Source of the DNA: an uncultured Planctomycetia bacterium
Lineage (GTDB): Bacteria; Omnitrophota; Gorgyraeia; Duberdicusellales; 4484-171
Direction of reading: 5' to 3'
Assembly: GCA_964420965.1 (NCBI GenBank)
Contig: CAYQUQ010000001.1
Span: 31,544-95,543, forward strand
DNA: 64,000 bases
Shown here: in pieces, positions 3,946 to 32,137 of the stretch
Layout: every line of letters begins with the position of its first letter
How positions within the stretch are numbered: the first letter of the stretch is position 1
Notes under the pieces: model-generated
What the model saw: only the letters and a program-made list of their open reading frames with translations
Told to the model about the DNA's origin: nothing
The model's database searches: none
Translations under genes and position numbers: made by a program

Positions 3946-5208
3946 ATGAGAAGGAGAAGTGTTGTTTTTATAGTGATTCTGGCCGTAATCGCACTTTCTT
4001 ACCGGGCCGGTATTTCTTTCGGCCAGGAAGGCGAAAAGAAAAAGGCAGTTAAAAAGGCAGTTAAAAAAGTAATTAAAAAGGATGATTTATATAAAGAGCT
4101 GGAGATCTTCGCCGAAGGATTAGCCGTCATTGAAAAGAAATACGTCGAAGACAAGTCCGCGCAAGACTTAATCTACGGAGCCATGGAAGGGCTGCTGATG
4201 TCCCTGGATTCTTACAGCCAGTTTTTAAGCCCCGATGACTATAAAAACCTTTTAGTGGAAACGGAAGGAAAGTTCGGCGGGTTAGGTATTGAGATTACCA
4301 TCAAGGACGGTTTGCTTACCATCGTCTCGCCTTTAGAAGATACACCGGCATGGAAGGCGGGAGTTAAGGCCAGCGATATAATCGTTAAGATCGAGGGCGA
4401 GTTGACCAAGGGTATTACTTTGAATGAAGCCGTTAAAAAGTTACGGGGCAAACCCGGCACCAAGGTTACCATAACCGTTTTGCGGGAAAAGGGCCGCAAG
4501 CTCGAAGACATAACCATCACCAGAGGAATTATTAAAATAAAAGACATAAAAAGAGCCCTGGTCTTAGAAGACAATATTGGTTACGTGAAAATAGCCGAAT
4601 TTAGAGAGAATACGGCCCGGGATCTGGACAAGGCTTTAGAGAAATTGAATAAAAAAAAGCTCAAAGGTATAATCATTGATTTACGCAATAATCCCGGCGG
4701 GCTGTTGAGCTCAGCCATAGAAGTCAGCAGCCGGTTTATAAAAGACGGGGCCGTGGTCGTATCCACCAAATCCCGCAGTGAAGCGGAGCGGGTGTATAAG
4801 TCCTTGCGGGTCAATAAGAAGTATTTGGATATCCCTTTGGTGGTATTGATAAATAAGGGCAGCGCTTCCGGGAGCGAGATCCTGGCGGCGGCCTTGCGGG
4901 ATAATAAGCAGGCTATTCTGCTGGGGGAGGCAACGTTCGGTAAGGGCTCAGTGCAGACCATAGTACCTTTATCCGACTCTTCGGCGATGCGTCTGACTAC
5001 TTCGAAGTATTATACCCCCACCGGTAAGAGTATTCACGAAAAGGGCATTGAGCCGGATATTCTGGTGACTAAGACCGAAGCCGAAGGCGAGGAAGATGTT
5101 TTTAAAGATCTGGACAAGAAAAAGAAATTCGATTATAAAAAAGATTATCAGATAATCAGAGCCCTGGATTTAATCCGAGGCCTGCTCGTTTTAAAAAACA
5201 GCGAGTAG
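3946..5208 (+). CDS. Carboxyl-terminal processing protease (S41 family) with PDZ domain, signal-anchored
   Basis: N-terminal hydrophobic segment; PDZ-like segment GLGIEITIKDGLLTIVSPLEDTPAWKAGVKASDII; S41 core IIDLRNNPGGLL...GSASGSEILAAAL; RBS AAAGGAGG. Confidence 0.85.
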   Translation: MRRRSVVFIVILAVIALSYRAGISFGQEGEKKKAVKKAVKKVIKKDDLYKELEIFAEGLAVIEKKYVEDKSAQDLIYGAMEGLLMSLDSYSQFLSPDDYKNLLVETEGKFGGLGIEITIKDGLLTIVSPLEDTPAWKAGVKASDIIVKIEGELTKGITLNEAVKKLRGKPGTKVTITVLREKGRKLEDITITRGIIKIKDIKRALVLEDNIGYVKIAEFRENTARDLDKALEKLNKKKLKGIIIDLRNNPGGLLSSAIEVSSRFIKDGAVVVSTKSRSEAERVYKSLRVNKKYLDIPLVVLINKGSASGSEILAAALRDNKQAILLGEATFGKGSVQTIVPLSDSSAMRLTTSKYYTPTGKSIHEKGIEPDILVTKTEAEGEEDVFKDLDKKKKFDYKKDYQIIRALDLIRGLLVLKNSE

Positions 5209-5210
5209 GC

Positions 5211-6203
5211 ATGTACACCCTGGGTATAGAAACTTCTTGCGATGAAACTTCCTGCGCGATTTTAAATAATTTTGAAGTCCTTTCCAACGTTACCCTGTCT
5301 TCTTTAAGAGAGCACAAAAAGTACGGCGGGGTGATTCCCGAAATAGCCACCCGCGCCCACCTTAAGGCTATGGATAGAGTTTTAAAAGAAGCTTCTATTC
5401 AGGCCGATGTGCCCCTAAAGAAAATAGGCCTGATCGGCGCGACCTGCAAACCGGGTTTGATCGGAAGCCTGGTGGTCGGCCTTAACTTTGCCAAAGCCCT
5501 GTCGGTAGCGCTTAAAGTGCCTTTTATAGGAATAAACCATCTCCACGCGCATCTTTTTGCCCCTTTTTTAAATTGTGCGCATAAGTTAAGATTTCCCTTC
5601 TTAGGTTTAGTAATTTCCGGCGGGCATACTGAGATTTACCGCGTCGACGATTTCAATAAGATAAAAACTCTGGGCGAAACTCTCGATGATGCCTGCGGGG
5701 AAGTTTTTGATAAAGTGGCTATGGGCTACGGCTTGGGGTATCCCGGAGGTCCGGTTATTGACCGGCTTTACGACCAGAGATACAGAAAGGATTTTGATTT
5801 TAAATGCGGCCGATCCGGATTTGATTTAAGCTTCAGCGGAATAAAAACCGCCCTTATTTATAAGAGAAACGAACTTAAGGCCAAGGGCCTTTTTGATGCC
5901 AAAACGAAGATAAGGCTTATCTCTTCTTTTCAGTATGCAGTTTGCGAAACGATTATCCGCGCGGCCCGGGAAGCGGCCGCGAAGTTTAAAATAGACCGGA
6001 TAGTCTGCGGCGGCGGAGTCGCCGCCAACAGCTATTTACGCCGCCGCCTGAAAAGTGAAGAAAAAAAGGCCAGATTAGAGATTTTGGTTTCGCCCCGCAA
6101 GTACGCCGGGGATAACGGAGCAATGGTTGCAGGATTAGGGTTTTATCTGTATAATAAAAGGAGAACAAAGAGCCCTCTAAATTTAAGGGCCGAGCCGAAC
6201 TGA
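5211..6203 (+). CDS. tsaD: tRNA N6-adenosine threonylcarbamoyltransferase (Kae1/TsaD family)
   Basis: MYTLGIETSCDETSCAIL; GINHLHAH; VISGGHTEIY; CGGGVAANSYLR. Confidence 0.92.
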   Translation: MYTLGIETSCDETSCAILNNFEVLSNVTLSSLREHKKYGGVIPEIATRAHLKAMDRVLKEASIQADVPLKKIGLIGATCKPGLIGSLVVGLNFAKALSVALKVPFIGINHLHAHLFAPFLNCAHKLRFPFLGLVISGGHTEIYRVDDFNKIKTLGETLDDACGEVFDKVAMGYGLGYPGGPVIDRLYDQRYRKDFDFKCGRSGFDLSFSGIKTALIYKRNELKAKGLFDAKTKIRLISSFQYAVCETIIRAAREAAAKFKIDRIVCGGGVAANSYLRRRLKSEEKKARLEILVSPRKYAGDNGAMVAGLGFYLYNKRRTKSPLNLRAEPN

Positions 6204-6210
6204 CCGCATA

Positions 6211-6651
6211 ATGATTAGCTTTTTTCAAACCATAATCAGGCTGATTTTAGCTTTTATTTTAGGGAGCGTTATTGGTTTAGAACGGGAGAAAAAGGGGGGT
6301 AGCGCGGGACTACGGACCCATATCTTGGTTTGTGTGGGGTCGGCATTAATAATGTTGACTTCCCTTTATATTTATGATATTTATCAGGATAAGGCCGCAA
6401 TTGATCCTTCCCGAATCGCCGCCGGGGTAGTTACCGGTATCGGATTTCTGGGGGCGGGGACGATAATCCGCAGCCGGGAAGGAGTCAAAGGCCTGACTAC
6501 GGCCGCAAGTATCTGGGTGAGCGCAGCCATCGGTCTGGCCGTGGGTTGCGGATATATCAGCGCCGCGCTGGTAGTTACCGGCCTTTCCTACTTATCGCTT
6601 TCTTTTTTGAAAAAAATAGAAAAAAGGAGCTCAGCTAATAAGGCAATTTAA
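6211..6651 (+). CDS. MgtC/SapB family membrane protein
   Basis: RLILAFILGSVIGLEREKKGGSAGLRTHILVCVGSALIM matches the MgtC N-terminal domain; 4 predicted TM helices. Confidence 0.8.
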   Translation: MISFFQTIIRLILAFILGSVIGLEREKKGGSAGLRTHILVCVGSALIMLTSLYIYDIYQDKAAIDPSRIAAGVVTGIGFLGAGTIIRSREGVKGLTTAASIWVSAAIGLAVGCGYISAALVVTGLSYLSLSFLKKIEKRSSANKAI

Positions 6652-6661
6652 TAAGATTTCT

Positions 6662-6730
6662 CGTCCCGACTCATCGTCGGGACTCGAGATCAATTTTCCT
6701 GAGTGAAACGCTATAAAATTGAGGGGGTGA
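6662..6730 (+). terminator. Terminator-like hairpin with conserved tail GGGACTCGAGATCAATTTTCCTGA and downstream AAAATTGAGGGGG RBS module, copy 1
   Basis: cgtcccgactcatcgtcgggactcgagatcaattttcctga...aaaattgagggggtgaaaaaATG. Confidence 0.6.
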
Positions 6731-6734
6731 AAAA

Positions 6735-7223
6735 ATGGCGAGACGTAGAGAAGAAGAGAAAATTTTAGACGTAAGTGCGGCCATGCAGGGAAGCTTAGTT
6801 TTTTCGGACCCCGTAAACTTACGGATTAACGGAAAGTTTGAGGGCACTTTAACCACCAAAGGTAATTTGATTATCGGAGAAAGCGCTGAGGTTAAAGCGG
6901 ACATCATCGGTGAGAGCATAACTATTGCCGGTTATGTCCGGGGAAAGATTAAAGCCAGCGGGATGGTCCGGCTCGTAAGCACGGGGCGGATTGTTGCCGA
7001 CATGGAAGTTCCCCGGCTGTCTATCGAAGAAGGAGCGGTCTTTAACGGTAAATGCGCCATGCTCGAGGGAAGAATTTCCCTGGAAGAGCTATCCGATTAT
7101 CTTTCGATCGAAGAGGATAAGATCATGGAATGGGTCGACGGCGGTAAAATTCCCGTAGAGAAAGAAGGGAGCAGATTATTATTCGACCGCGAAGAGGTAG
7201 AAAGCTTTATAGCCCATAAATAA
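6735..7223 (+). CDS. Bactofilin-domain protein with a C-terminal excisionase-type helix-turn-helix
   Basis: Beta-helical xGxVxGxI repeats (NGKFEGTLTTKGNLIIGESAEVKADIIGESITIAGYVRGKIKASGMVRLVSTGRIVADMEV...GAVFNGKC); C-terminal LSIEEDKIMEWVDGGKIPVEKEGSRLLFDREEVESFI resembles the HTH of the next gene. Confidence 0.7.
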   Translation: MARRREEEKILDVSAAMQGSLVFSDPVNLRINGKFEGTLTTKGNLIIGESAEVKADIIGESITIAGYVRGKIKASGMVRLVSTGRIVADMEVPRLSIEEGAVFNGKCAMLEGRISLEELSDYLSIEEDKIMEWVDGGKIPVEKEGSRLLFDREEVESFIAHK

Positions 7224-7262
7224 ACCTTAGATAGAATAATCCCTGTAATCTAATTAATAATT

Positions 7263-7577
7263 ATGAAAGAAAAACTTCTGGCCACCAGAGAGGTTTCACA
7301 AATCTTAGGCATCCCCGAAAAAGAGATTATCGACCTGGCTAATACCAATATTATCCCCCATTTCAAGGTAGCCGGGGAGTTCTTCCGTTTTAAAAGAGAG
7401 GATGTATTGCGAATTAAACCTGCCATTAAAAAGAAATATAATCTTCCCGAAAAAAAACGCCACCGCTCAGAAAGCATTAGGGAATTTTTTTACTTTAATG
7501 ATTTTTATATTGTGGCGACAGCCTTAATAATTTTTTTGCTCTGGATAATCATTAAGGATATCGCCTTTAGCGCCTGA
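7263..7577 (+). CDS. Small excisionase-family HTH DNA-binding protein with a C-terminal transmembrane helix
   Basis: REVSQILGIPEKEIIDLANTNIIPHFKVAGEFFRFKREDVLRI; C-terminal FYIVATALIIFLLWIII hydrophobic helix. Confidence 0.55.
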   Translation: MKEKLLATREVSQILGIPEKEIIDLANTNIIPHFKVAGEFFRFKREDVLRIKPAIKKKYNLPEKKRHRSESIREFFYFNDFYIVATALIIFLLWIIIKDIAFSA

Positions 7578-19219: not shown

Positions 19220-22200
19220 ATGCTGTCATTTTTTCAGAGGCAGAAGGCCACTGTCTCTCTCCGCTTATTAGGTGCATTACTCATTTTCTTTCTGTTTATC
19301 TCTCTAGCCGCTACCTACTTACCTAAGAGATCACCGAAGTATGCTGATTTTCTTCCTCCCCCCGGCAAACTAGTAGCTTTAACCCCCGCCTTTATCCCGC
19401 CGCTTTTACGCGGCCTGACCATCTATCCCCAGGATCCTTTTCGCTTCGACTTCTATATCGAAAACGGCGACAAACACCTTAAAGATGAACAGTTTAAACA
19501 AGAATCCCGGCAGCTGATCAAGTACTTTTTAGCGGCCTTAACCATACCCGAGGAAGACTTCTGGGTCAACCTCTCCCCTTACGAACAAGAAAGAATCGCT
19601 CCTGAGGACTTAGGCGTAACCGAGCTGGGAAAAGCCCTCTTAGGCCAGGACTATATCTTAAAACAACTCCTGGCTTCCCTGATGCACCCGGACAGTGAGA
19701 CCGGAAAAGAGTTCTGGAAGCGGGTCTATAGACGCGCCCATGAGCTCTACGGCACGACCAAAATACCCATTAACACCTTCAACAAGATTTGGATTATGCC
19801 GGAGAAGGCCTTAGTTTACGCCCGGGACAATACCGCTTATGTGGTGGAAAGCCGCCTCAAAGTTTTACTGGAAGAAGACTACCTGGCCTTAAAGCAAAAT
19901 CTTAACCACCCGGCTCCCGGTTCGGAAAAGCTCTCGCCGGATAAGACCAAGGTTTTATGCCGGATATCTTCTAATCTGATCAAGGAAGTCATCCTGCCGG
20001 AAATCGAAACAGAAATCAACCAGGGAGAAAACTTCGCCTCTTTGAGGCAGGCCTTTAACGCCATGGTCTTAGCCGCCTGGTTTAAACGCCGCCTTAAAAC
20101 TCACCTCCTCAATCAGGTCTATACCGATAAAGCCAAACTCAAAGGTGTCGATCTTAAAGATAAAGCCACCAAACAAAAAATCTACCAGCAATACTTAGAG
20201 GCCTACCGGCAAGGCGTATACAACTACATCAAGACTGAATATGACCCCAATATGCAGAAAAACATTTCCCGCCAGTACTACAGCGGCGGCTTTGCCTGGG
20301 GAAAGCCCGGGGAATGGTTGGGTGAGACCGGCCAGGCCCCCTTATCCCGCCGGGAAGGAGCCAATGTCCAGGTGGCTTTGCGGGCGGAAATGGGGCAGAC
20401 AAGGAGAGTTTCCTCGCCCAGTGAGAGTAGTGGAGATGAGCTTAAGGTTCTCTATAACGCGGCTTTAGCCGGTGATAGTTCCGCGGTAAACCAGTTAAAG
20501 GCATTTGCTCTCTCTTCCGACCACGCCCTAGCCCAAAGCGCCTACGAATACCTGGATCACCTGGCCTACAAAGAAAGCAACTTAGAGAGCATCCAGGCCG
20601 TAAAGGAGCTGGCCCTTTCTGCGGATATACCCCGGGAAGCCAAACTTAATTCCAATAGCCAGGGTATCATCGATGACTTAGCTTATATCGTCCGGGAAGC
20701 CCAGCACCATATCAGCAGCGAAGCCCGCAAGGCGGCTTTAGACGCTTTAGAGGAAATCATGTTTGCTTATGCTAAGAGCGATACCAAGATAGCCGATTAT
20801 ATCTTAAACCGCATATTCACCCCCTTAAGGAATGGCTACATAAACACTATCCCCGACGGAGCCGAGCTGGCCACCCAGGCCTTAAAAAGAATGGTGGAGT
20901 CTGACCAGATCGGTTCAGGCTTAACTGCCCAGGCTTTAACGGCTAAACCGGAACAACCCTTAGCCGTATTTAATACCGTAACTGACCCGGCGGCCCAAGG
21001 ATATACCCCTGGGCATAAAAAGACAGCCTTGGAAAACTTAAACCTGGCCCAGGCCGCCCAGGTAATCCCCCGGATAAAGGAGCTGGTCTTCTCCCAGGAC
21101 CACGCCCTAGCCCAAAGCGCCTACGAATACCTGGATCACCTGGCCTACAAAGAAAGCAACTTAGACAGCATCCAGGCCGTGAAGGAGCTGGCCCTGTCTG
21201 CGGATATACCCCGGAAGGCTAAACTTGACTCCAATAACCAGGGCATTATCGATGACTTAGCTTATATCGTCCGGGAAATACAACTGAACGTCAGCAGAGA
21301 AGCCCGCAAGGCGGCCCTGGCGGCTTTAGAAGAGATCCTGTTTGCCTACGCTAACGATACCAACATAGCCGATTACATCTTGAACCGCGTATTCATCGCC
21401 CTAAGGGAACAGGTGATAAGCGCTATCCCCGACGGAGCCGAGCTGGCCACCCAGGCTTTAAAAAGAATGGTGGAGTCTGACCAGATCGGCCCAGGTTTAA
21501 CGGCCCGGGCCTTAACGGCTAAACCGGAACAACCCTTAGCCGTATTTAATACCGTAACTGACCCGGCGGCCCAAGGATATACCCCTGGGCATAAAAAGAC
21601 AGCCTTGGAAAACTTAAACCTGGCCCAGGCCGCCCAGGTAATCCCCCGGATAAAGGAGCTGGTCTTCTCCCAGGACCACGCCCTAGCCCAAAGCGCCTAC
21701 GAATACCTGGATCACCTGGCCTACAAAGAAAGCAACTTAGACAGCATCCAGGCCGTGAAGGAGCTGGCCCTGTCTGCGGATATACCCCGGAAGGCTAAAC
21801 TTGACTCCAATAACCAGGGCATCATCGATGACTTAGCTTATATCGTCCGGGAAACCCAGCACCATATCAGCAGCGAAGCCCGCAAAGCGGCCCTGGCGGC
21901 TTTAGGAGAGATTGCTGCCGCTGATTTTGCCGACGATGCTATCATCAGATACTTACAGAATGATAACGGCGTTAAAGCAATAATCCGCAGTACCTCACTA
22001 CCAGCTATCCCCCAAGATTTATGGGAGTTGCTACAAACAGCTAATCAGGATGCTCCTTCCAACAAGCAGATAAATTTAGAATCATTTATGGCTGACTACT
22101 GGCTTACCGTGGCCCGGCTTTACCACCTGGATCCACGCTATTGCCGCCAGATATTTGACGCTATCCTTTCCGGCCTGGGGCCAAAGCGGCTAGCGGCATT

Positions 22201-25200
22201 CTTAAAGGATATACAACCGGCCCTTTGGGATGAAACCATTTACCCAGCATTAAAGTCAATATTTAAACAGGCCCAAGAGCGGGATCATGCTTATGCCCAG
22301 AGAATTATCGAGTTAGCTGCCGCCTATAAGGATTTAGGGATCAGCCAGTTATTTGTGCAGCTGGCCGCGCAGGAAGCCCAAAAACGCCGGGTTACGGTCC
22401 GGCAGGTATATTTAGCTCTAGCCCAGGAGTTAATCAAAGCCTTTGCCCAGAAACTGGGAGTTACCCTGGACCGGGTGACTGCCGAGACCATTGAAAATTG
22501 GTATTTGCCTTATTTATCCAAGCTGTTTGTGGGCCGGCGCATTGTCTATGCTCACGGCAGCAGCCACCGGCCCCTGCAGCAGCTATTCGATTCAGTGATC
22601 AAGGCCACCCTGGAAGGTAAATTCGCTGAGATGATCACTGATACCAGTGATGCCAACGCTTATCCCATGGGTAAAAGAATTGCTGAGCAGAATCAGAAGG
22701 TGAGAAAAGCCTTAGAGTTATTAGGCATTGACTTAGAAGAGTGGTTAGGCTATCAAGAGGAAGCCCGGTTTAGCTTAGAGCAGGCCCAGGGCAGCCGGAT
22801 TGATGTGGCCGCAGAATTACAGGGCTTGGCCGAGCAGTTTTTCGCTCTTCTCGATAAGCTGCAGGAAAAGCACGGGAATATGGTCAGGGGTAGTTTAGGT
22901 AAGATGGGCTTAGAATTAGTGGAAGATGCTCAAGGCAGGCGTCTGGTTCAGAATAATGGTCGGCAGGAAACCAATCAGAAAGTGGCCCTTAAAGCCTTGA
23001 TGGGTTTATTATTTAAAAACCAGGGTAACTTCAGCAAACTCCAGAAAAGCTTGAATTTCCTGGATAGAAATTATCAGGGCCAGGAAGCGGCTACCTTAAT
23101 CTTCCACATCCGGGAAAAACTAGAGATGCTTAACCGCCTGGTCAATAATCCCGCAGAATTTAAAAAAGCCCTGGAAGGCCCGCAGGCATTTTTAATCCGC
23201 AGGTGGGCCCGAAATCCCGGCCGGGATATCTTCCAGGGTAACTTTACCGGATGCTGTGTGGCTATCGATAACGACTTACACCCGGAGGCCATTATCGAAT
23301 ACCTCATTGACCAGGGGATTCAGATTGTGGAGGTTGTTGATGAGGCTACCGGCTTAGCCGTAGCCCAGACATGGGTTTTTGTAGCCGTTAATCAAAACGG
23401 CAAGCCGGTTTTAGTTTTAGACAATATTGAAGTCGAGGAAACTTACCCTAAAACTTCCGGTCAGAATAAAATAATCCGTGATCACCTGGTAGCCTACATG
23501 CAGAAATATGCGCAGGCTATCGACGTCGAGGAGCTTTATTTAGGGGTAACCCAGTACAACGATGTGAACACCAGTGATTACCCCACTGTTTCTGATCAGT
23601 TGGTCAAGCCCGGGGGTTACCTCTGGGATTTTGAAGGCGCAAACTATACCTACTATTTAGAGTCCATGTACGGCGAAACCGTTCAGCAGAGTTCGCACCG
23701 CGCCGACGGAAGTATCCCTTCTACGGCCCGGCAGTTCCACCGCCTTCCTTTGCCTAAGCTTCCGCCTAAACCGGTGGATAATAGCCGGATCGGCGTCGAC
23801 CGCGTTCTACCCGATCAGGCCGAGGGGATTTTAGATCAACTGGTCCAGGTAGAGGCCGGGGCTTATTCTAATCCGGAATTAAGGCTGGGAAGAGAATTTT
23901 TACGCCACTCCGTAAATAATCCCCAGGGGGTCAATATGGTATTGCGCTACAAGGGAAGAATAATCGGCTACGCCCTCTCTGTTCCGGCTGAGGACGAGGA
24001 GGCTGCTCCCCAGATTCCCCACAGCCTTTACCTTGAGGATTTTGCTATTCTGCCCGAGTTCCGCAATAATCCGGCGGCCAATCTTAAGTTTATCCGGGGA
24101 TTTCTCCGGGAGGTAACCAACGGTACCTATCAGACCGTAACCCTGCATACTCATGGTGGGATTGTCAAATTTCTGGTGGATGATTTTGGCTTTGCCATAG
24201 TCGGTAAAGAAGATAATTGGCTTGATTCGGGAGAGACCTTTTATTTATTGCGCTGGGATAAGGCTTCTTCTTCGGTCTCCTCACCATCGTCTTCTCCCCG
24301 CAGAGAGGAGCTAGAGAGGTTACGCGATGCCCTGATGAATGCCGCGGAGAGATTAAAATCGAATCTCGTCCTACACCATAAGGAAGTAGAAGATTTTCAT
24401 AGCACAGTCAGTATATATAATGGACAAGAAATGACCACCGGAGAAATGCTGGATGAACTCAGAAGAGGTATGTATAGGATTAAAACCCGCGAAGAATTAA
24501 TGGATGAGTTGCACCTCTGGATGGATTGGCATATTGAGCATGCATTACATGTAGATAGTGTTGTTTCCCACGCTGCTTCCCGCAGCTCCAAACAAGTGGT
24601 AAGAGAATTGCTGATCAGAGAGTTCGATCTTAAGACTTTAATGTTGATCGATATAGAATATTTAGAGGGGGAAGGAAAAGGCTTTGCCCGGGGCGGATAC
24701 GGAATAGGTAAACACGAGAAATTAGACGAACCGAGACAAAAACAAGTAGCCCAGTGGTATAATCGCCATTTATATGAAGGATTCGAAGTCTTACAGACGG
24801 TTTTAGAAGAGCGGGAACTTCCCTGGGAAGTTGATTTTCAGGAGTATGAACAGTCATTTAAATTTTGGTTTCCTGACAATATTTCTCGGCCTATTGCCCG
24901 CGAGCGGCAGAGAGGGCAGACTTACGAAGATAGCGTGAATGCCAGTCTTGCGGAGGTTAATGCAGCCATTAAGGAGGTTAATGAGGAGTTACGCCAGTAT
25001 GCTGATCCCGATGAAAGTTCATCGTCCCCCAACGCCTCGTCCTCATCCCAGCCGGACGGTACAGGAAAAGATATTACCAGAAGAAGATTTTTGAAGCGTC
25101 TGACCGCGACTGCAACTGTAGCGACGGTAGCGCCTAATGATATCATTCTACCGGGATCCACGTTACCGTCTCCGGCATCTCCAGTCAGAATAAGTTATGC

Positions 25201-26281
25201 TCTTCTGCGCGATATGCTATCAGGAATAGGTGCTGTTCAAATGCCTACTACAGGGAGTCGGGGTAATTTAATTGTATTTGATGATTTTCCTTTTTGGTGG
25301 CATCTGCGGAGAGTATTGCCAGAGGGGCAGAAAGATGAAGCAGAAAAAATTGCAGAAAAATTACTGAGAGCGGCTGTGTTAGAGGCCAGACAGAGGCTGA
25401 GGACAGCAGGGATTATAGAGACAGGAGAGGCCGCAGAACAAGTTATTGGAGATATCGAGAGGGCATTCGATGATTCAGCCCATGAGGTTCGTAGAACGAT
25501 AGAGAAAGGAGGTTATTCAGAAGACCTGGTATACGATGCTATTAAAAAAGCACAAAAAGCAATAGCGCAACAGCAGGATAAAAAAGAGGATGGCCTTGAG
25601 CAACCAGAACCGGAGATCATGTACACCGACTCCGGCTTTCCGGACTTTGATATTACCCAGATGCAGGATATAGAGCTTATTGGACGAATTGAGGTAATCG
25701 AAGCTGACCTGTTCAGGCAGCTGCAGCTAAGGAGTGCTTCTGACCGGGATATCCGCACACTCGCCGGCCGTATCTATCTGGCCCAGCGGGCAGCAGAGGG
25801 AAGGGCTATGGCTGAAGTAACTGATCTTAGTCCGATTGGTAATATCACCCAAGATGATCTAGAGTCAATCGGCGGCCGCGTGTTAGGTCTGATGGGGATG
25901 AGCGGGGTAGGCGAAAGTCCGCCTGAAGGTCAACCCAAGCAGGCAGGACTTACCGTCTTATCAACGACAGATTCGTCTTCTCCCAACGCTTCGTCCTCAT
26001 CCCAGCCGACACGGAGGGGCAACAACGCCGCCGGGGAGGGTGTCGGCAGACCATTCCTCAAAGGTAACCAAACACCCGGCGGCATTGATTTTAACCCTGA
26101 TAACCTGGATTTACAGGTTATCGGGGATAATAGCAGGGAGCGGTCTCGACCGTTCCCTGCTGAATCTCAGCTTCCTTTCGATACCCATAATTTCCAAGGC
26201 TTTACCTTCCAGATTCTCAAAATCGAGCCGGTTACAGACCCAGTCCATATTACCAAAGGACCCCAGCTTTCTCGCCGCTAA
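19220..26281 (+). CDS. Giant modular membrane-anchored protein (2,353 aa) with internal 192-aa tandem repeats and Ser/Pro-rich linkers; function unknown
   Basis: Uninterrupted 7,062-bp ORF; N-terminal TM helix LLGALLIFFLFISLAA; repeat array 20515-21915; possible GNAT-like segment at about 23900-24260; internal Tat-like motif TRRRFLKRL; duplicated linker SSSPNASSSSQP. Confidence 0.8.
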   Translation: MLSFFQRQKATVSLRLLGALLIFFLFISLAATYLPKRSPKYADFLPPPGKLVALTPAFIPPLLRGLTIYPQDPFRFDFYIENGDKHLKDEQFKQESRQLIKYFLAALTIPEEDFWVNLSPYEQERIAPEDLGVTELGKALLGQDYILKQLLASLMHPDSETGKEFWKRVYRRAHELYGTTKIPINTFNKIWIMPEKALVYARDNTAYVVESRLKVLLEEDYLALKQNLNHPAPGSEKLSPDKTKVLCRISSNLIKEVILPEIETEINQGENFASLRQAFNAMVLAAWFKRRLKTHLLNQVYTDKAKLKGVDLKDKATKQKIYQQYLEAYRQGVYNYIKTEYDPNMQKNISRQYYSGGFAWGKPGEWLGETGQAPLSRREGANVQVALRAEMGQTRRVSSPSESSGDELKVLYNAALAGDSSAVNQLKAFALSSDHALAQSAYEYLDHLAYKESNLESIQAVKELALSADIPREAKLNSNSQGIIDDLAYIVREAQHHISSEARKAALDALEEIMFAYAKSDTKIADYILNRIFTPLRNGYINTIPDGAELATQALKRMVESDQIGSGLTAQALTAKPEQPLAVFNTVTDPAAQGYTPGHKKTALENLNLAQAAQVIPRIKELVFSQDHALAQSAYEYLDHLAYKESNLDSIQAVKELALSADIPRKAKLDSNNQGIIDDLAYIVREIQLNVSREARKAALAALEEILFAYANDTNIADYILNRVFIALREQVISAIPDGAELATQALKRMVESDQIGPGLTARALTAKPEQPLAVFNTVTDPAAQGYTPGHKKTALENLNLAQAAQVIPRIKELVFSQDHALAQSAYEYLDHLAYKESNLDSIQAVKELALSADIPRKAKLDSNNQGIIDDLAYIVRETQHHISSEARKAALAALGEIAAADFADDAIIRYLQNDNGVKAIIRSTSLPAIPQDLWELLQTANQDAPSNKQINLESFMADYWLTVARLYHLDPRYCRQIFDAILSGLGPKRLAAFLKDIQPALWDETIYPALKSIFKQAQERDHAYAQRIIELAAAYKDLGISQLFVQLAAQEAQKRRVTVRQVYLALAQELIKAFAQKLGVTLDRVTAETIENWYLPYLSKLFVGRRIVYAHGSSHRPLQQLFDSVIKATLEGKFAEMITDTSDANAYPMGKRIAEQNQKVRKALELLGIDLEEWLGYQEEARFSLEQAQGSRIDVAAELQGLAEQFFALLDKLQEKHGNMVRGSLGKMGLELVEDAQGRRLVQNNGRQETNQKVALKALMGLLFKNQGNFSKLQKSLNFLDRNYQGQEAATLIFHIREKLEMLNRLVNNPAEFKKALEGPQAFLIRRWARNPGRDIFQGNFTGCCVAIDNDLHPEAIIEYLIDQGIQIVEVVDEATGLAVAQTWVFVAVNQNGKPVLVLDNIEVEETYPKTSGQNKIIRDHLVAYMQKYAQAIDVEELYLGVTQYNDVNTSDYPTVSDQLVKPGGYLWDFEGANYTYYLESMYGETVQQSSHRADGSIPSTARQFHRLPLPKLPPKPVDNSRIGVDRVLPDQAEGILDQLVQVEAGAYSNPELRLGREFLRHSVNNPQGVNMVLRYKGRIIGYALSVPAEDEEAAPQIPHSLYLEDFAILPEFRNNPAANLKFIRGFLREVTNGTYQTVTLHTHGGIVKFLVDDFGFAIVGKEDNWLDSGETFYLLRWDKASSSVSSPSSSPRREELERLRDALMNAAERLKSNLVLHHKEVEDFHSTVSIYNGQEMTTGEMLDELRRGMYRIKTREELMDELHLWMDWHIEHALHVDSVVSHAASRSSKQVVRELLIREFDLKTLMLIDIEYLEGEGKGFARGGYGIGKHEKLDEPRQKQVAQWYNRHLYEGFEVLQTVLEERELPWEVDFQEYEQSFKFWFPDNISRPIARERQRGQTYEDSVNASLAEVNAAIKEVNEELRQYADPDESSSSPNASSSSQPDGTGKDITRRRFLKRLTATATVATVAPNDIILPGSTLPSPASPVRISYALLRDMLSGIGAVQMPTTGSRGNLIVFDDFPFWWHLRRVLPEGQKDEAEKIAEKLLRAAVLEARQRLRTAGIIETGEAAEQVIGDIERAFDDSAHEVRRTIEKGGYSEDLVYDAIKKAQKAIAQQQDKKEDGLEQPEPEIMYTDSGFPDFDITQMQDIELIGRIEVIEADLFRQLQLRSASDRDIRTLAGRIYLAQRAAEGRAMAEVTDLSPIGNITQDDLESIGGRVLGLMGMSGVGESPPEGQPKQAGLTVLSTTDSSSPNASSSSQPTRRGNNAAGEGVGRPFLKGNQTPGGIDFNPDNLDLQVIGDNSRERSRPFPAESQLPFDTHNFQGFTFQILKIEPVTDPVHITKGPQLSRR
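20515..21915 (+). repeat. About 2.4 tandem copies of a 576-579-bp coding repeat inside the giant ORF (copy 1 20515-21093, copy 2 21094-21669, partial copy 3 21670-about 21915)
   Basis: Identical string ccacgccctagcccaaagcgcctacgaatacctggatcacctggcctacaaagaaagcaacttag at 20521, 21100 and 21676; the copy ends share more than 150 bp of exact identity. Confidence 0.9.
26132..26161. repeat. Near-palindromic 30-mer related to the korA palindrome, inside the giant ORF 3' region
   Basis: agcagggagcggtctcgaccgttccctgct (2 mismatches from a perfect palindrome). Confidence 0.8.
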
Positions 26282-30883: not shown

Positions 30884-32137
30884 ATGAAGAGAGTAGTAGT
30901 CACCGGTATCGGTATTATCTGCGGAGCAGGGGAGACAAAAGAAGAATTTTATAAAAATCTCATCGACGGTAAACCCTGTGTTGAGCGGGTGGATAATTTC
31001 GACGTCAGTTTGTTTAATTCCAAAATTGCTTCCCAGGATTTAGGTTTCGACCCCTTGAAGTTTGGCATCAAAGACCATGAACGCATGGATAGGTACGTTC
31101 AATTCAGTATTGCCGCCGCCAAACAGGCAGTTGAGGACAGCAACATCGACGGCAATTCTATCGATCACTACCGGGCCGGGGTGGTTTTAGCCAACGCTAT
31201 CTGCGGCACGCGCTGGATGGAGGAAGAGTTTCTTTTGGTGACCGATTGGGGCAAAAATCCTATCGATCCCCGCAAGGGGCGCCCTTATCTTTATGATGCC
31301 TCTATGTTTAATACCCCGAGCACAGAGATAGCCGCTATTTACGGTCTTAAAGGGATTAACTGCACTATTTCCACCGGCTGTACCGCCGGGACGGATTCCG
31401 TCGGTTTTGCCTACGAGCTGATCAGAGAGGGCCGGCAGGATATGATCGTAGCCGGAGCCGGCGAAGCACCGATTACCCCGATTACTTTCGGCGCTTTCGA
31501 CGTAATCAACGCGATTTCCAAACGTAATGACGAACCGCATAAAGCATCCCGCCCCTTTGACAAGCAGAGAGACGGATTTGTTCTTTCCGAGGCCAGCGGA
31601 ATTCTAGTGTTAGAGGAATTAGAACATGCCCGAAAAAGAGGTGCGCCGATTTACTGTGAAATAATCGGTTACGGGACTTCCTGTAATGCTTATCATATGA
31701 CTGATTTACCCCAGGACGGCGTGGCTATGGTTCAGTGTTTAGAGGAGACTTTCAAAGACGCTAAGATTGCCAAAGAAAAAATCGATTACATCAACACCCA
31801 CGGTTCATCTACCCCTCAGAATGACGTTTTCGAGACCAACGCCTACAAAACTTATTTTGGCGATTTAGCCTACCAGCTTCCGATCAGTTCAATCAAGTCG
31901 ATGATCGGGCATCCCCTGGCCGCAGCCAATGCCGTAGAGTCAGTTCTTTGTGCCCTGATTTTTAAGAAAAACATTCTTCCTCCCACCATAAATCAGGAAG
32001 AGAAAGATCCCCGGTGCGATTTAGACTATATACCTAATAAGGCCAGAGAAAAAAAAGTAGATTATATTTTGAAGACCAGCAGTGGATTCTCCGGAATTCA
32101 CTCCTCAATGGTTTTTAAACGTTGGGAGGATAAATGA
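30884..32137 (+). CDS. Beta-ketoacyl synthase, KS-alpha type (type II PKS/FAS ketosynthase)
   Basis: Active-site region ISTGCTAGTDSVGFA (Cys present); His motifs INTHGSST and SMIGHPL; 417 aa. Confidence 0.9.
   Translation: MKRVVVTGIGIICGAGETKEEFYKNLIDGKPCVERVDNFDVSLFNSKIASQDLGFDPLKFGIKDHERMDRYVQFSIAAAKQAVEDSNIDGNSIDHYRAGVVLANAICGTRWMEEEFLLVTDWGKNPIDPRKGRPYLYDASMFNTPSTEIAAIYGLKGINCTISTGCTAGTDSVGFAYELIREGRQDMIVAGAGEAPITPITFGAFDVINAISKRNDEPHKASRPFDKQRDGFVLSEASGILVLEELEHARKRGAPIYCEIIGYGTSCNAYHMTDLPQDGVAMVQCLEETFKDAKIAKEKIDYINTHGSSTPQNDVFETNAYKTYFGDLAYQLPISSIKSMIGHPLAAANAVESVLCALIFKKNILPPTINQEEKDPRCDLDYIPNKAREKKVDYILKTSSGFSGIHSSMVFKRWEDK

Follow-up and report, generated by a model that had tools for sequence, protein, structure and literature searches.

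The bactofilin-HTH gene and its neighbor

The window analyzed here, a 64-kb stretch of DNA (positions 31,544 to 95,543 of contig CAYQUQ010000001.1, titled as an uncultured Planctomycetia bacterium and placed by GTDB in the Omnitrophota), carries two small adjacent genes, here called A and B. Gene A encodes a 162-residue protein comprising an N-terminal bactofilin core and a C-terminal helix-turn-helix (HTH) domain of the HTH_17 family, and gene B a 104-residue protein with an HTH_17 domain and a predicted C-terminal transmembrane (TM) helix. Bactofilins are known as passive scaffolds whose variable, usually disordered tails recruit clients, and to our knowledge every connection made from them to DNA (by PadC) or to HTH proteins (BacR) has until now involved a separate protein. 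In the present pair, the subunit of the predicted polymer itself contains a folded winged helix, and its gene is always accompanied by one for a cognate tail-anchored winged-helix protein. Both domains are already tagged by database pipelines, and the architecture is visible but uncharacterized. Literature searches returned neither a description of a bactofilin fused to an HTH nor a study of Omnitrophota bactofilins, in agreement with an earlier note on this DNA whose author was aware of no characterized fusion of this kind. What is new is thus the combination of a bactofilin scaffold bearing a covalent winged helix with an obligate tail-anchored winged-helix partner. The features of the two genes are listed below with the evidence for each; ORF stands for open reading frame and pLDDT for the predicted local distance difference test score of AlphaFold2.

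6735..7223 (+): gene A, bactofilin-HTH_17 fusion, 162 residues (ORF list, Pfam, TIGR01764, homologs, AlphaFold2)
6765..7055 (+): bactofilin beta-helix core of A, residues 11-107, including Phe103 (Pfam, AlphaFold2, Foldseek)
7071..7217 (+): acidic winged HTH of A, residues 113-161 (HTH_17, TIGR01764, AlphaFold2, Foldseek, net charge -8)
7263..7577 (+): gene B, predicted tail-anchored HTH_17 protein, 104 residues, no Shine-Dalgarno sequence (ORF list, Pfam, homologs)
7275..7436 (+): winged HTH of B, residues 5-58, with basic wing K35, R42, K/R44 and K/R45 (AlphaFold2, Foldseek)
7437..7484 (+): basic juxtamembrane linker of B, residues 59-74, YNLPEKKRHRSESIRE (charge, pLDDT 57-60)
7485..7511 (+): aromatic motif F-x-Y-F-N-D-F-Y-I of B, residues 75-83, predicted at the cytoplasmic membrane face (column counts)
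7503..7553 (+): predicted C-terminal TM tail anchor of B, approximately residues 81-97 (hydropathy, AlphaFold2)

The N-terminal part of A matched the Pfam Bactofilin family (PF04519) over residues 11-107 with 85.4 bits, above the curated cut-off of 27.9 bits (the corresponding cut-offs are 27 bits for HTH_17 and 28.8 bits for TIGR01764). In the AlphaFold2 model (mean pLDDT 80.5), residues 10-109 form a beta-helix with strand pLDDT values of 83-94. In Foldseek searches of the PDB, each half of A found structures of its own, bactofilins for the core and winged helices for the C-terminal domain; the core matched the Thermus bactofilin TtBac (6rib/6ria) at a probability of 1.00 and a TM-score on the target of 0.73-0.74. 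The connector between core and HTH is about 5 residues long in the clade of the window and reaches about 25 residues in distant members.

For comparison across relatives we used 80 loci from species-representative genomes, whose A proteins are 46-77% identical; column counts refer to 80 sequences for A, and counts and column statistics for B to 78. Phe103 of A, within the motif E-E-G-A-V-F-N-G-K, aligns with F105 of TtBac and F130 of BacA; the position holds F in 62 sequences, L in 16, and I and V in one each, and the nearby G100 and G105 are invariant. In TtBac, F105 makes self-contacts over the tail-to-tail (C-C) interface, the F105R substitution impairs or blocks polymerization, and bactofilin filaments are non-polar, with N-N and C-C interfaces alternating (bioRxiv 10.1101/617639). 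By domain score, beta-helix fold and a hydrophobic residue at the C-C interface, A is a bactofilin, as the earlier note had recognized, and its polymerization is predicted from the kept interface residue. If A does polymerize in a non-polar manner, its winged helices would come to lie in two-fold-related pairs at the C-C junctions, about 6 nm apart. Beta-helix, C-C hydrophobic residue, small size and an expected nucleotide-independent, non-polar polymer are shared with canonical bactofilins such as Caulobacter crescentus BacA and TtBac; the latter usually have a disordered C-terminal tail, whereas A has a folded winged helix in its place.

That C-terminal domain matched HTH_17 (PF12728) over residues 115-160 with 34.5 bits and the TIGR01764 'excise' model with 33.0 bits, both above cut-off, and was modeled with the layout beta113-115, H116-123, H127-135, beta141-144, beta147-151 and H152-161, i.e. 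beta-alpha-alpha-beta-beta-alpha. Foldseek found the Pukovnik excisionase Xis (4j2n) at a root-mean-square deviation (rmsd) of 1.4 Å over 48 columns, and further BldC, RdfS, RacA-DNA, TraN and CbpM. The assignment of the A C-terminus to the excisionase/MerR-type HTHs made in the earlier note was therefore correct.

The same holds for its description of B as an HTH protein ending in a TM helix. HTH_17 matched residues 6-50 of B with 30.0 bits, above cut-off; when both HTHs were checked against TIGR01764, as had been proposed, A passed and B fell short with 23.3 bits. The AlphaFold2 model of B (mean pLDDT 80.6) consists of a winged helix at residues 5-58, a low-confidence linker, and a single long helix at residues 66-103 (pLDDT 88-92). 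No significant match to B or to its profile turned up when the PDB was searched by sequence; by structure, Foldseek found BldC (rmsd 1.0-1.2 Å over 48-49 columns) and RacA-DNA (1.9 Å over 55-56 columns), besides SoxR, the centromere-binding domain of pSK1 Par, GlnR and CbpM. RacA, BldC and Xis, small architectural DNA proteins with a MerR-like winged helix, are hence the closest solved folds for both HTHs, with Foldseek rmsd values of 1.0-1.9 Å to 4j2n, 6ama, 6amk and 5i44, and superposition gave 1.0-1.7 Å for BldC and 1.6-1.9 Å for RacA. RacA is a chromosome anchor to a polar scaffold; its coiled coil occurs in neither A nor B.

The C-terminal hydrophobic segment of B reaches a maximal 19-residue Kyte-Doolittle mean of 2.44 in the window, and is found in 78/78 B sequences (maxima of 1.7-3.1). 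Since merely 0-8 residues follow this segment across the family, B is classed as tail-anchored, and its membrane insertion is predicted. In the window, residues 53-74 have a net charge of +5, against a family median of +3 and extremes of -6 and +8; given this basic linker and the positive-inside rule, the HTH of B would face the cytoplasm. The aromatic motif, located just before and overlapping the start of the TM segment, is conserved more strongly than either the TM helix or the HTH (F75 in 75, Y77 in 78, F78 in 77, N79 in 70, D80 in 76, F81 in 78 and Y82 in 78 of the 78 sequences), and may be an interaction or oligomerization site at the membrane surface.

The cytoplasmic layout of B, with an N-terminal HTH, a positive juxtamembrane linker and a single TM helix, is shared with RodZ, whose HTH binds MreB and not DNA and is likewise followed by a basic linker and TM helix (PMC6946637). 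RodZ, however, has an XRE-type HTH, a periplasmic domain and MreB as its partner, whereas the HTH of B is of the MerR/Xis type and the protein stops shortly after its TM helix. B is not a RodZ homolog, and the resemblance is architectural only.

Conservation, synteny and expression signals

In 77 of the 80 loci, A is directly followed on its strand by a B homolog, and in the remaining three the contig or locus ends just past A. The gene pair is thus conserved in relatives, which the earlier note had proposed to check. The spacing is 39 nt in the window and has a median of 55 nt in related loci. Searches with A returned 836 homologs at E≤1e-3, the best 120 of which are 161-164 residues long and all carry both Pfam domains, and a profile built from distant A members returned 2012 clusters at E≤1e-10; the bactofilin-HTH fusion is far beyond chance. 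All informative organism names on the homologs are Candidatus Omnitrophota or Omnitrophica, and the same applies among the top matches of the distant profile.

Upstream of A, the genes for the C-terminal processing protease CtpA, for TsaD and for an MgtC-family membrane protein occupy positions 3946-6651 with gaps of 2-7 nt. MgtC is encoded immediately upstream of A in 70/80 loci, the order ctpA-tsaD-mgtC-A-B is kept in at least 70/80, and genes further downstream vary. TsaD is an essential enzyme, and by mean pairwise divergence the core of A (0.39), its HTH (0.48) and the HTH of B (0.46) are comparable to TsaD (0.47), which argues for housekeeping-grade selection on the pair. A and B form an obligate, phylum-wide housekeeping-type module of the Omnitrophota. 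This is an uncultivated phylum with few cultured representatives, and a pair as small as this (162 + 104 residues) offers an experimental handle on its cell biology. The features flanking A on its upstream side are as follows.

6211..6651 (+): mgtC-family membrane protein gene, immediate upstream neighbor of A (Pfam MgtC, 147.6 bits)
6663..6683 (no strand): perfect 8-bp inverted repeat, GTCCCGAC-n5-GTCGGGAC, in the mgtC-A spacer (read from sequence)
6721..6729 (+): Shine-Dalgarno sequence of gene A, GAGGGGGTG (anti-Shine-Dalgarno duplex of -14.9 kcal/mol)

The titles of the 80 loci are mostly Omnitrophota, with a few given as 'Planctomycetia', 'Methanosarcinales' or plain 'bacterium' ('uncultured Planctomycetia' for L003, L006, L007, L010 and others; 'Methanosarcinales archaeon' JAIWAR01 for L014 and L033). 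Metagenome-assembled genome records with a Planctomycetia or Methanosarcinales title and an Omnitrophota-type locus are probably mislabeled or contaminated bins.

The Shine-Dalgarno sequence of A is the strongest among the 57 ORFs of the window, and over 77 loci the median energy is -13.6 kcal/mol, with 96% at or below -6. For B, the anti-Shine-Dalgarno energy is +0.8 in the window with a median of -2.15 over 72 loci, the signal being almost never present; it is also missing for 58% of the window ORFs. Such a pattern agrees with A being an abundant structural protein and B a less plentiful partner. The spacer between mgtC and A is often just 17-30 nt in relatives, a length that implies co-transcription of the two genes. 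The inverted repeat in this spacer was considered as an autoregulatory operator and rejected: the 80 related loci show no conserved inverted or direct repeat near A, and the spacer frequently leaves no room for a promoter or operator. It was not called as a terminator in a promoter/terminator consensus scan, and is probably a local RNA hairpin.

Most bactofilins bind the membrane via an N-terminal MFSKxxK-like membrane-targeting sequence that depends critically on F2 and the lysines, and the bitopic client PbpC can, when overproduced, stand in for that of BacA (PMC12448750). The A protein of the window starts with MARRREEEKILD and has no Phe there, so that this typical, though not defining, sequence is absent; in contrast to canonical bactofilins its clade starts MARRREEEK, with the consensus M-x-[RK][RK][KR]-E-E-E-K-I-L-D. 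A start resembling the targeting sequence, MAF[RK]x[RK][RK]K or MFKNRKK, occurs in 11/80 A proteins, all of the distant clade and all with B still present (L058, L060, L061, L062, L065, L066, L067, L070, L073, L079 and L080). The distribution suggests that an ancestral targeting sequence was lost in the lineage of the window. The bactofilin scaffold may have B as its client or partner.

Relationship and contact surfaces of the two winged helices

The earlier note had regarded the HTH of B as a paralogous copy of that of A. Comparison of the two family profiles with hhalign gave a probability of 97.6% (E 4.8e-12, 30% identity) over 47 columns, and the similarity is thus not one of low-complexity residues, the doubt raised in that note; BLASTP of A against B detected no pairwise similarity. 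Some distant loci encode, a few kb downstream of A-B, strongly basic stand-alone HTH_17 ORFs of 62-65 residues (L057:6804-7001, L063:6439-6627, L064:7336-7530, L075:7406-7600 and L071:11693-11881), which have no equivalent in the window and which served as our reference for a normal HTH_17 domain. With the A-HTH profile, four of these reached 42-50 bits and the fifth, a truncated match, 29.7, compared with a median of 19 bits for B; with the B-HTH profile, those four reached 30-35 bits and A 19.7. Because both profiles prefer the generic stand-alone ORFs, the two domains are not closest mutual relatives, and together with the BLASTP result this rules out a recent duplication. The reading as a paralogous copy is not supported: the domains are homologous, divergent members of one family by these profile comparisons.

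The earlier note had further read A as a polymer of the cytoskeleton that carries a DNA-binding domain and, with the membrane-tethered HTH of B, as a direct link between filament, chromosome and membrane. The contact residues of DNA-bound BldC bear on this reading. In the BldC-DNA structure, bases are touched by K26 and R30, and phosphates by T27, T29, W31 and K33, with H46, R47 and R48 contributing from the wing; RacA has an Arg equivalent to R30 (PMC5859096). BldC was brought into register with A and B by HMMER alignment to a canonical Omnitrophota HTH_17 ORF followed by MAFFT alignment of all sequences, and the equivalences are given below, with a one-residue disagreement between the two alignment methods in the wing.

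BldC K26: A 128, N/D/S/G (D in the window); B 20, K in 48/78
BldC R30: A 132, E 66, D 11, N 3 of 80; B 24, D 30, E 18, R 9 of 78
BldC W31: A 133, W in 79/80; B 25, L in 75/78
BldC K33: A 135, mostly N/E/D (53/80); B 27, N, E or D
BldC R48: A 149, L 31, K 13, R 11, F 8 of 80; B 42, R in 78/78
BldC R50: A 151, D 65, E 13 of 80; B 44, K 40, R 33 of 78

At the positions of K26, R30, K33, R48 and R50, the A protein of the window has D128, E132, D135, L149 and D151, and the basic contact set of BldC (K26, R30, K33 and R47/R48) is absent from it. The base-reading Arg of BldC and RacA is replaced by Glu in A and by Asp in the B of the window, and the A domain is acidic overall: its net charge is -8 in the window with a family median of -4, against +5 for both BldC and Pukovnik Xis and +7 and +8 for two canonical Omnitrophota HTH_17 ORFs. 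Acidic residues are kept in A at positions 126 (75/80), 132 (77/80), 144 (74/80) and 151 (78/80), and the first wing strand has acidic residues at places that are hydrophobic in BldC, in B and in the canonical HTH_17 ORFs. As these residues are conserved, they point to a selected acidic surface rather than to decay. With a charge of -8 and Glu/Asp at the Arg30 and Arg50 positions, canonical DNA binding by A is doubtful; canonical DNA reading by its HTH appears unlikely and weak or non-canonical binding is possible. The HTH fold assumed in the earlier note is therefore present in the polymer subunit, and the DNA-binding function assigned to it has become questionable.

B differs from A in its wing, with R42 in 78/78 sequences and K/R kept at positions 35, 44 and 45. 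At the BldC contact positions, the B of the window has K20, D24, N27, R42 and K44, i.e. the wing is kept and the equivalent of Arg30 is lost; in some B proteins of the distant clade, positions 23/24 are K/R. The net charge of the B HTH is +2 in the window. On account of the retained basic wing, B is the more credible DNA contact of the two proteins, if there is any.

Proposed coupling at the membrane and alternative explanations

The architecture, the folds, the polymerization residue, the pattern of charges and contact residues, the gene adjacency and the housekeeping synteny are observed at these loci; from them we infer the contact between A and B and any DNA binding. We tentatively favor a model in which membrane-proximal A filaments and the RodZ-like, tail-anchored B are coupled by their winged helices, with A docking protein and B being the likelier DNA contact. 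A and B would act as a two-protein module at the cytoplasmic membrane, specific to the Omnitrophota. The beta-helix of A would polymerize into non-polar filaments, from which its winged helices would emerge as two-fold pairs at the tail-to-tail junctions with a repeat of about 6 nm, while B would be held by a single TM helix and present its HTH to the cytoplasm on a basic juxtamembrane linker. The winged-helix modules would be the coupling device between the two proteins. Because the basic DNA-reading surface is lost and an acidic surface is conserved, the HTH of A would serve to dock a protein, with B as the most plausible one, and the polymer would cluster or position B, plus any cargo of B, along the membrane.

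HTH domains that bind cytoskeletal proteins, be it instead of DNA or in competition with it, have precedents, by analogy, in RodZ-MreB and BacR-BacE/F, and CbpM, found among the fold matches of both domains, is a protein-binding MerR-fold protein solved in complex with the J-domain of CbpA. BacR (YhbD, DUF4004) of Bacillus subtilis resembles the present pair in being an HTH protein genetically linked to bactofilin genes (bacE and bacF), and BacR and its bactofilins interact physically at the membrane (PMC13649987). It differs in being a separate, soluble DUF4004 protein encoded upstream, whereas here one HTH is fused to the bactofilin and the other belongs to an integral, tail-anchored protein encoded downstream. 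The BacNOP-PadC-ParABS system of Myxococcus xanthus likewise has a partner encoded downstream, next to the bactofilin scaffold; PadC, a DNA-associating adaptor, binds a bactofilin C-terminal extension and links the scaffold to chromosome organization (PMC5703909). PadC, however, has a ParB-like domain and no TM helix, where B has an HTH_17 domain and a tail anchor, and BacP's extension at the C-terminus is disordered where that of A is a winged helix. If docking is true, the domain would have been repurposed to bind protein, as in RodZ, and the pair would be a clean case from nature of an HTH of the excisionase/MerR type converted to coupling a cytoskeleton.

Several observations weigh against this docking model. 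The HTH_17 family to which the A domain belongs is overwhelmingly DNA-binding, the basic residues K129, K138, K143 and K/R147 are retained in A, and some distant A members have a more canonical recognition helix (e.g. 'VKPSVINQW'). The recognition helix of B is itself acidic in the clade of the window (E19, E21 and D24). An electrostatic complementarity of acidic A and basic B was rejected as a family-wide feature, the charge of the B HTH ranging from -5 to +6 and that of its linker from -6 to +8. In a mirror-tree analysis controlled for TsaD, the partial correlation between the A and B HTHs (r 0.35) was no higher than that between the A HTH and MgtC (0.39). Finally, the coexistence of MTS-like starts (those resembling a membrane-targeting sequence) with B in 11 distant loci weakens the idea of B as a mere substitute for a lost targeting sequence, and B is thus not merely a replacement anchor.

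The direct tether of the earlier note, in which both HTHs bind DNA, the polymer lends avidity and B pins the DNA so that the nucleoid is positioned or segregated, is the main rival and in our view unlikely, though with a real chance of being correct. It draws on the usual function of the HTH_17 family, on the passing of the HTH_17 cut-off by both domains and on closest solved folds that include DNA-bound BldC and RacA, excisionases and the pSK1 Par centromere-binding domain. HTH pairs at the two-fold C-C junctions would resemble a MerR-type dimer, and a link between bactofilins and ParABS via a DNA-binding adaptor, PadC, encoded just downstream of bacNOP, is known (PMC5703909). The retained lysines of A and the near-canonical recognition helices of some distant members favor it as well. 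Against it stand the charge of the A HTH compared with BldC, Xis and the canonical ORFs, the acidic residues at the Arg30 and Arg50 positions and in the first wing strand, and the lack of a conserved DNA repeat or operator near the locus in the 80 related loci. A filament-chromosome-membrane link hence survives as one explanation, and is no longer the most economical one for the HTH of A.

A bolder version, which we consider improbable, is that the bactofilin filament itself binds the chromosome through winged-helix pairs spaced about every 6 nm and forms, with B, a nucleotide-independent anchor between nucleoid and membrane. If the HTH of A does bind DNA, A would be the first polymer of a cytoskeleton to bring DNA-binding domains of its own; the anchor would then count as an invention central to the cell biology of the ultra-small Omnitrophota, and might take over part of a ParABS- or RacA-type role.

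A switch of the BacR kind, with A or B as a transcription factor sequestered on the membrane or polymer and tuning its own operon or an envelope-stress regulon, is harder still to accept and seems quite improbable. BacR/YhbD, encoded with bacEF, offers the parallel, since bactofilin binding blocks its DNA binding and shifts it to the membrane (PMC13649987), and the conserved basic wing of B would suit such a role. B, however, is permanently tail-anchored by prediction, with at most 8 residues past its TM helix, and has no obvious release mechanism; DUF4004 (PF13171) gave no match in A or B at E≤1. The short mgtC-A spacer provides no conserved repeat to act as an operator, and the very strong Shine-Dalgarno sequence of A suits a structural protein.

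A component of a mobile element or defense system, i.e. a recombination directionality factor or MAD1 of a methylation-associated defense system (MADS), has next to no chance of being the answer, even though A exceeds the 'excise' cut-off, several homologs are named 'excisionase family DNA binding protein' by JGI and both proteins weakly match mad1 (NF047737/PADLOC): it is ruled out by the fixed housekeeping block of ctpA, tsaD and mgtC upstream, which in at least 70/80 loci argues against the setting beside an integrase in a mobile element expected of an excisionase (no search was aimed at integrases or other MADS genes), and by sub-threshold scores of 28.6 and 29.9 bits against a cut-off of 80 (NF047737) and of 20 and 15 bits in PADLOC, which are generic HTH_17 similarity.

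Elsewhere in the 64-kb window, no tRNA gene and no Rfam family at the gathering threshold was found. A 2353-residue ORF at 19220-26281 (+), without a Pfam-A match at E≤1e-4, lies in surroundings that are otherwise of housekeeping type.

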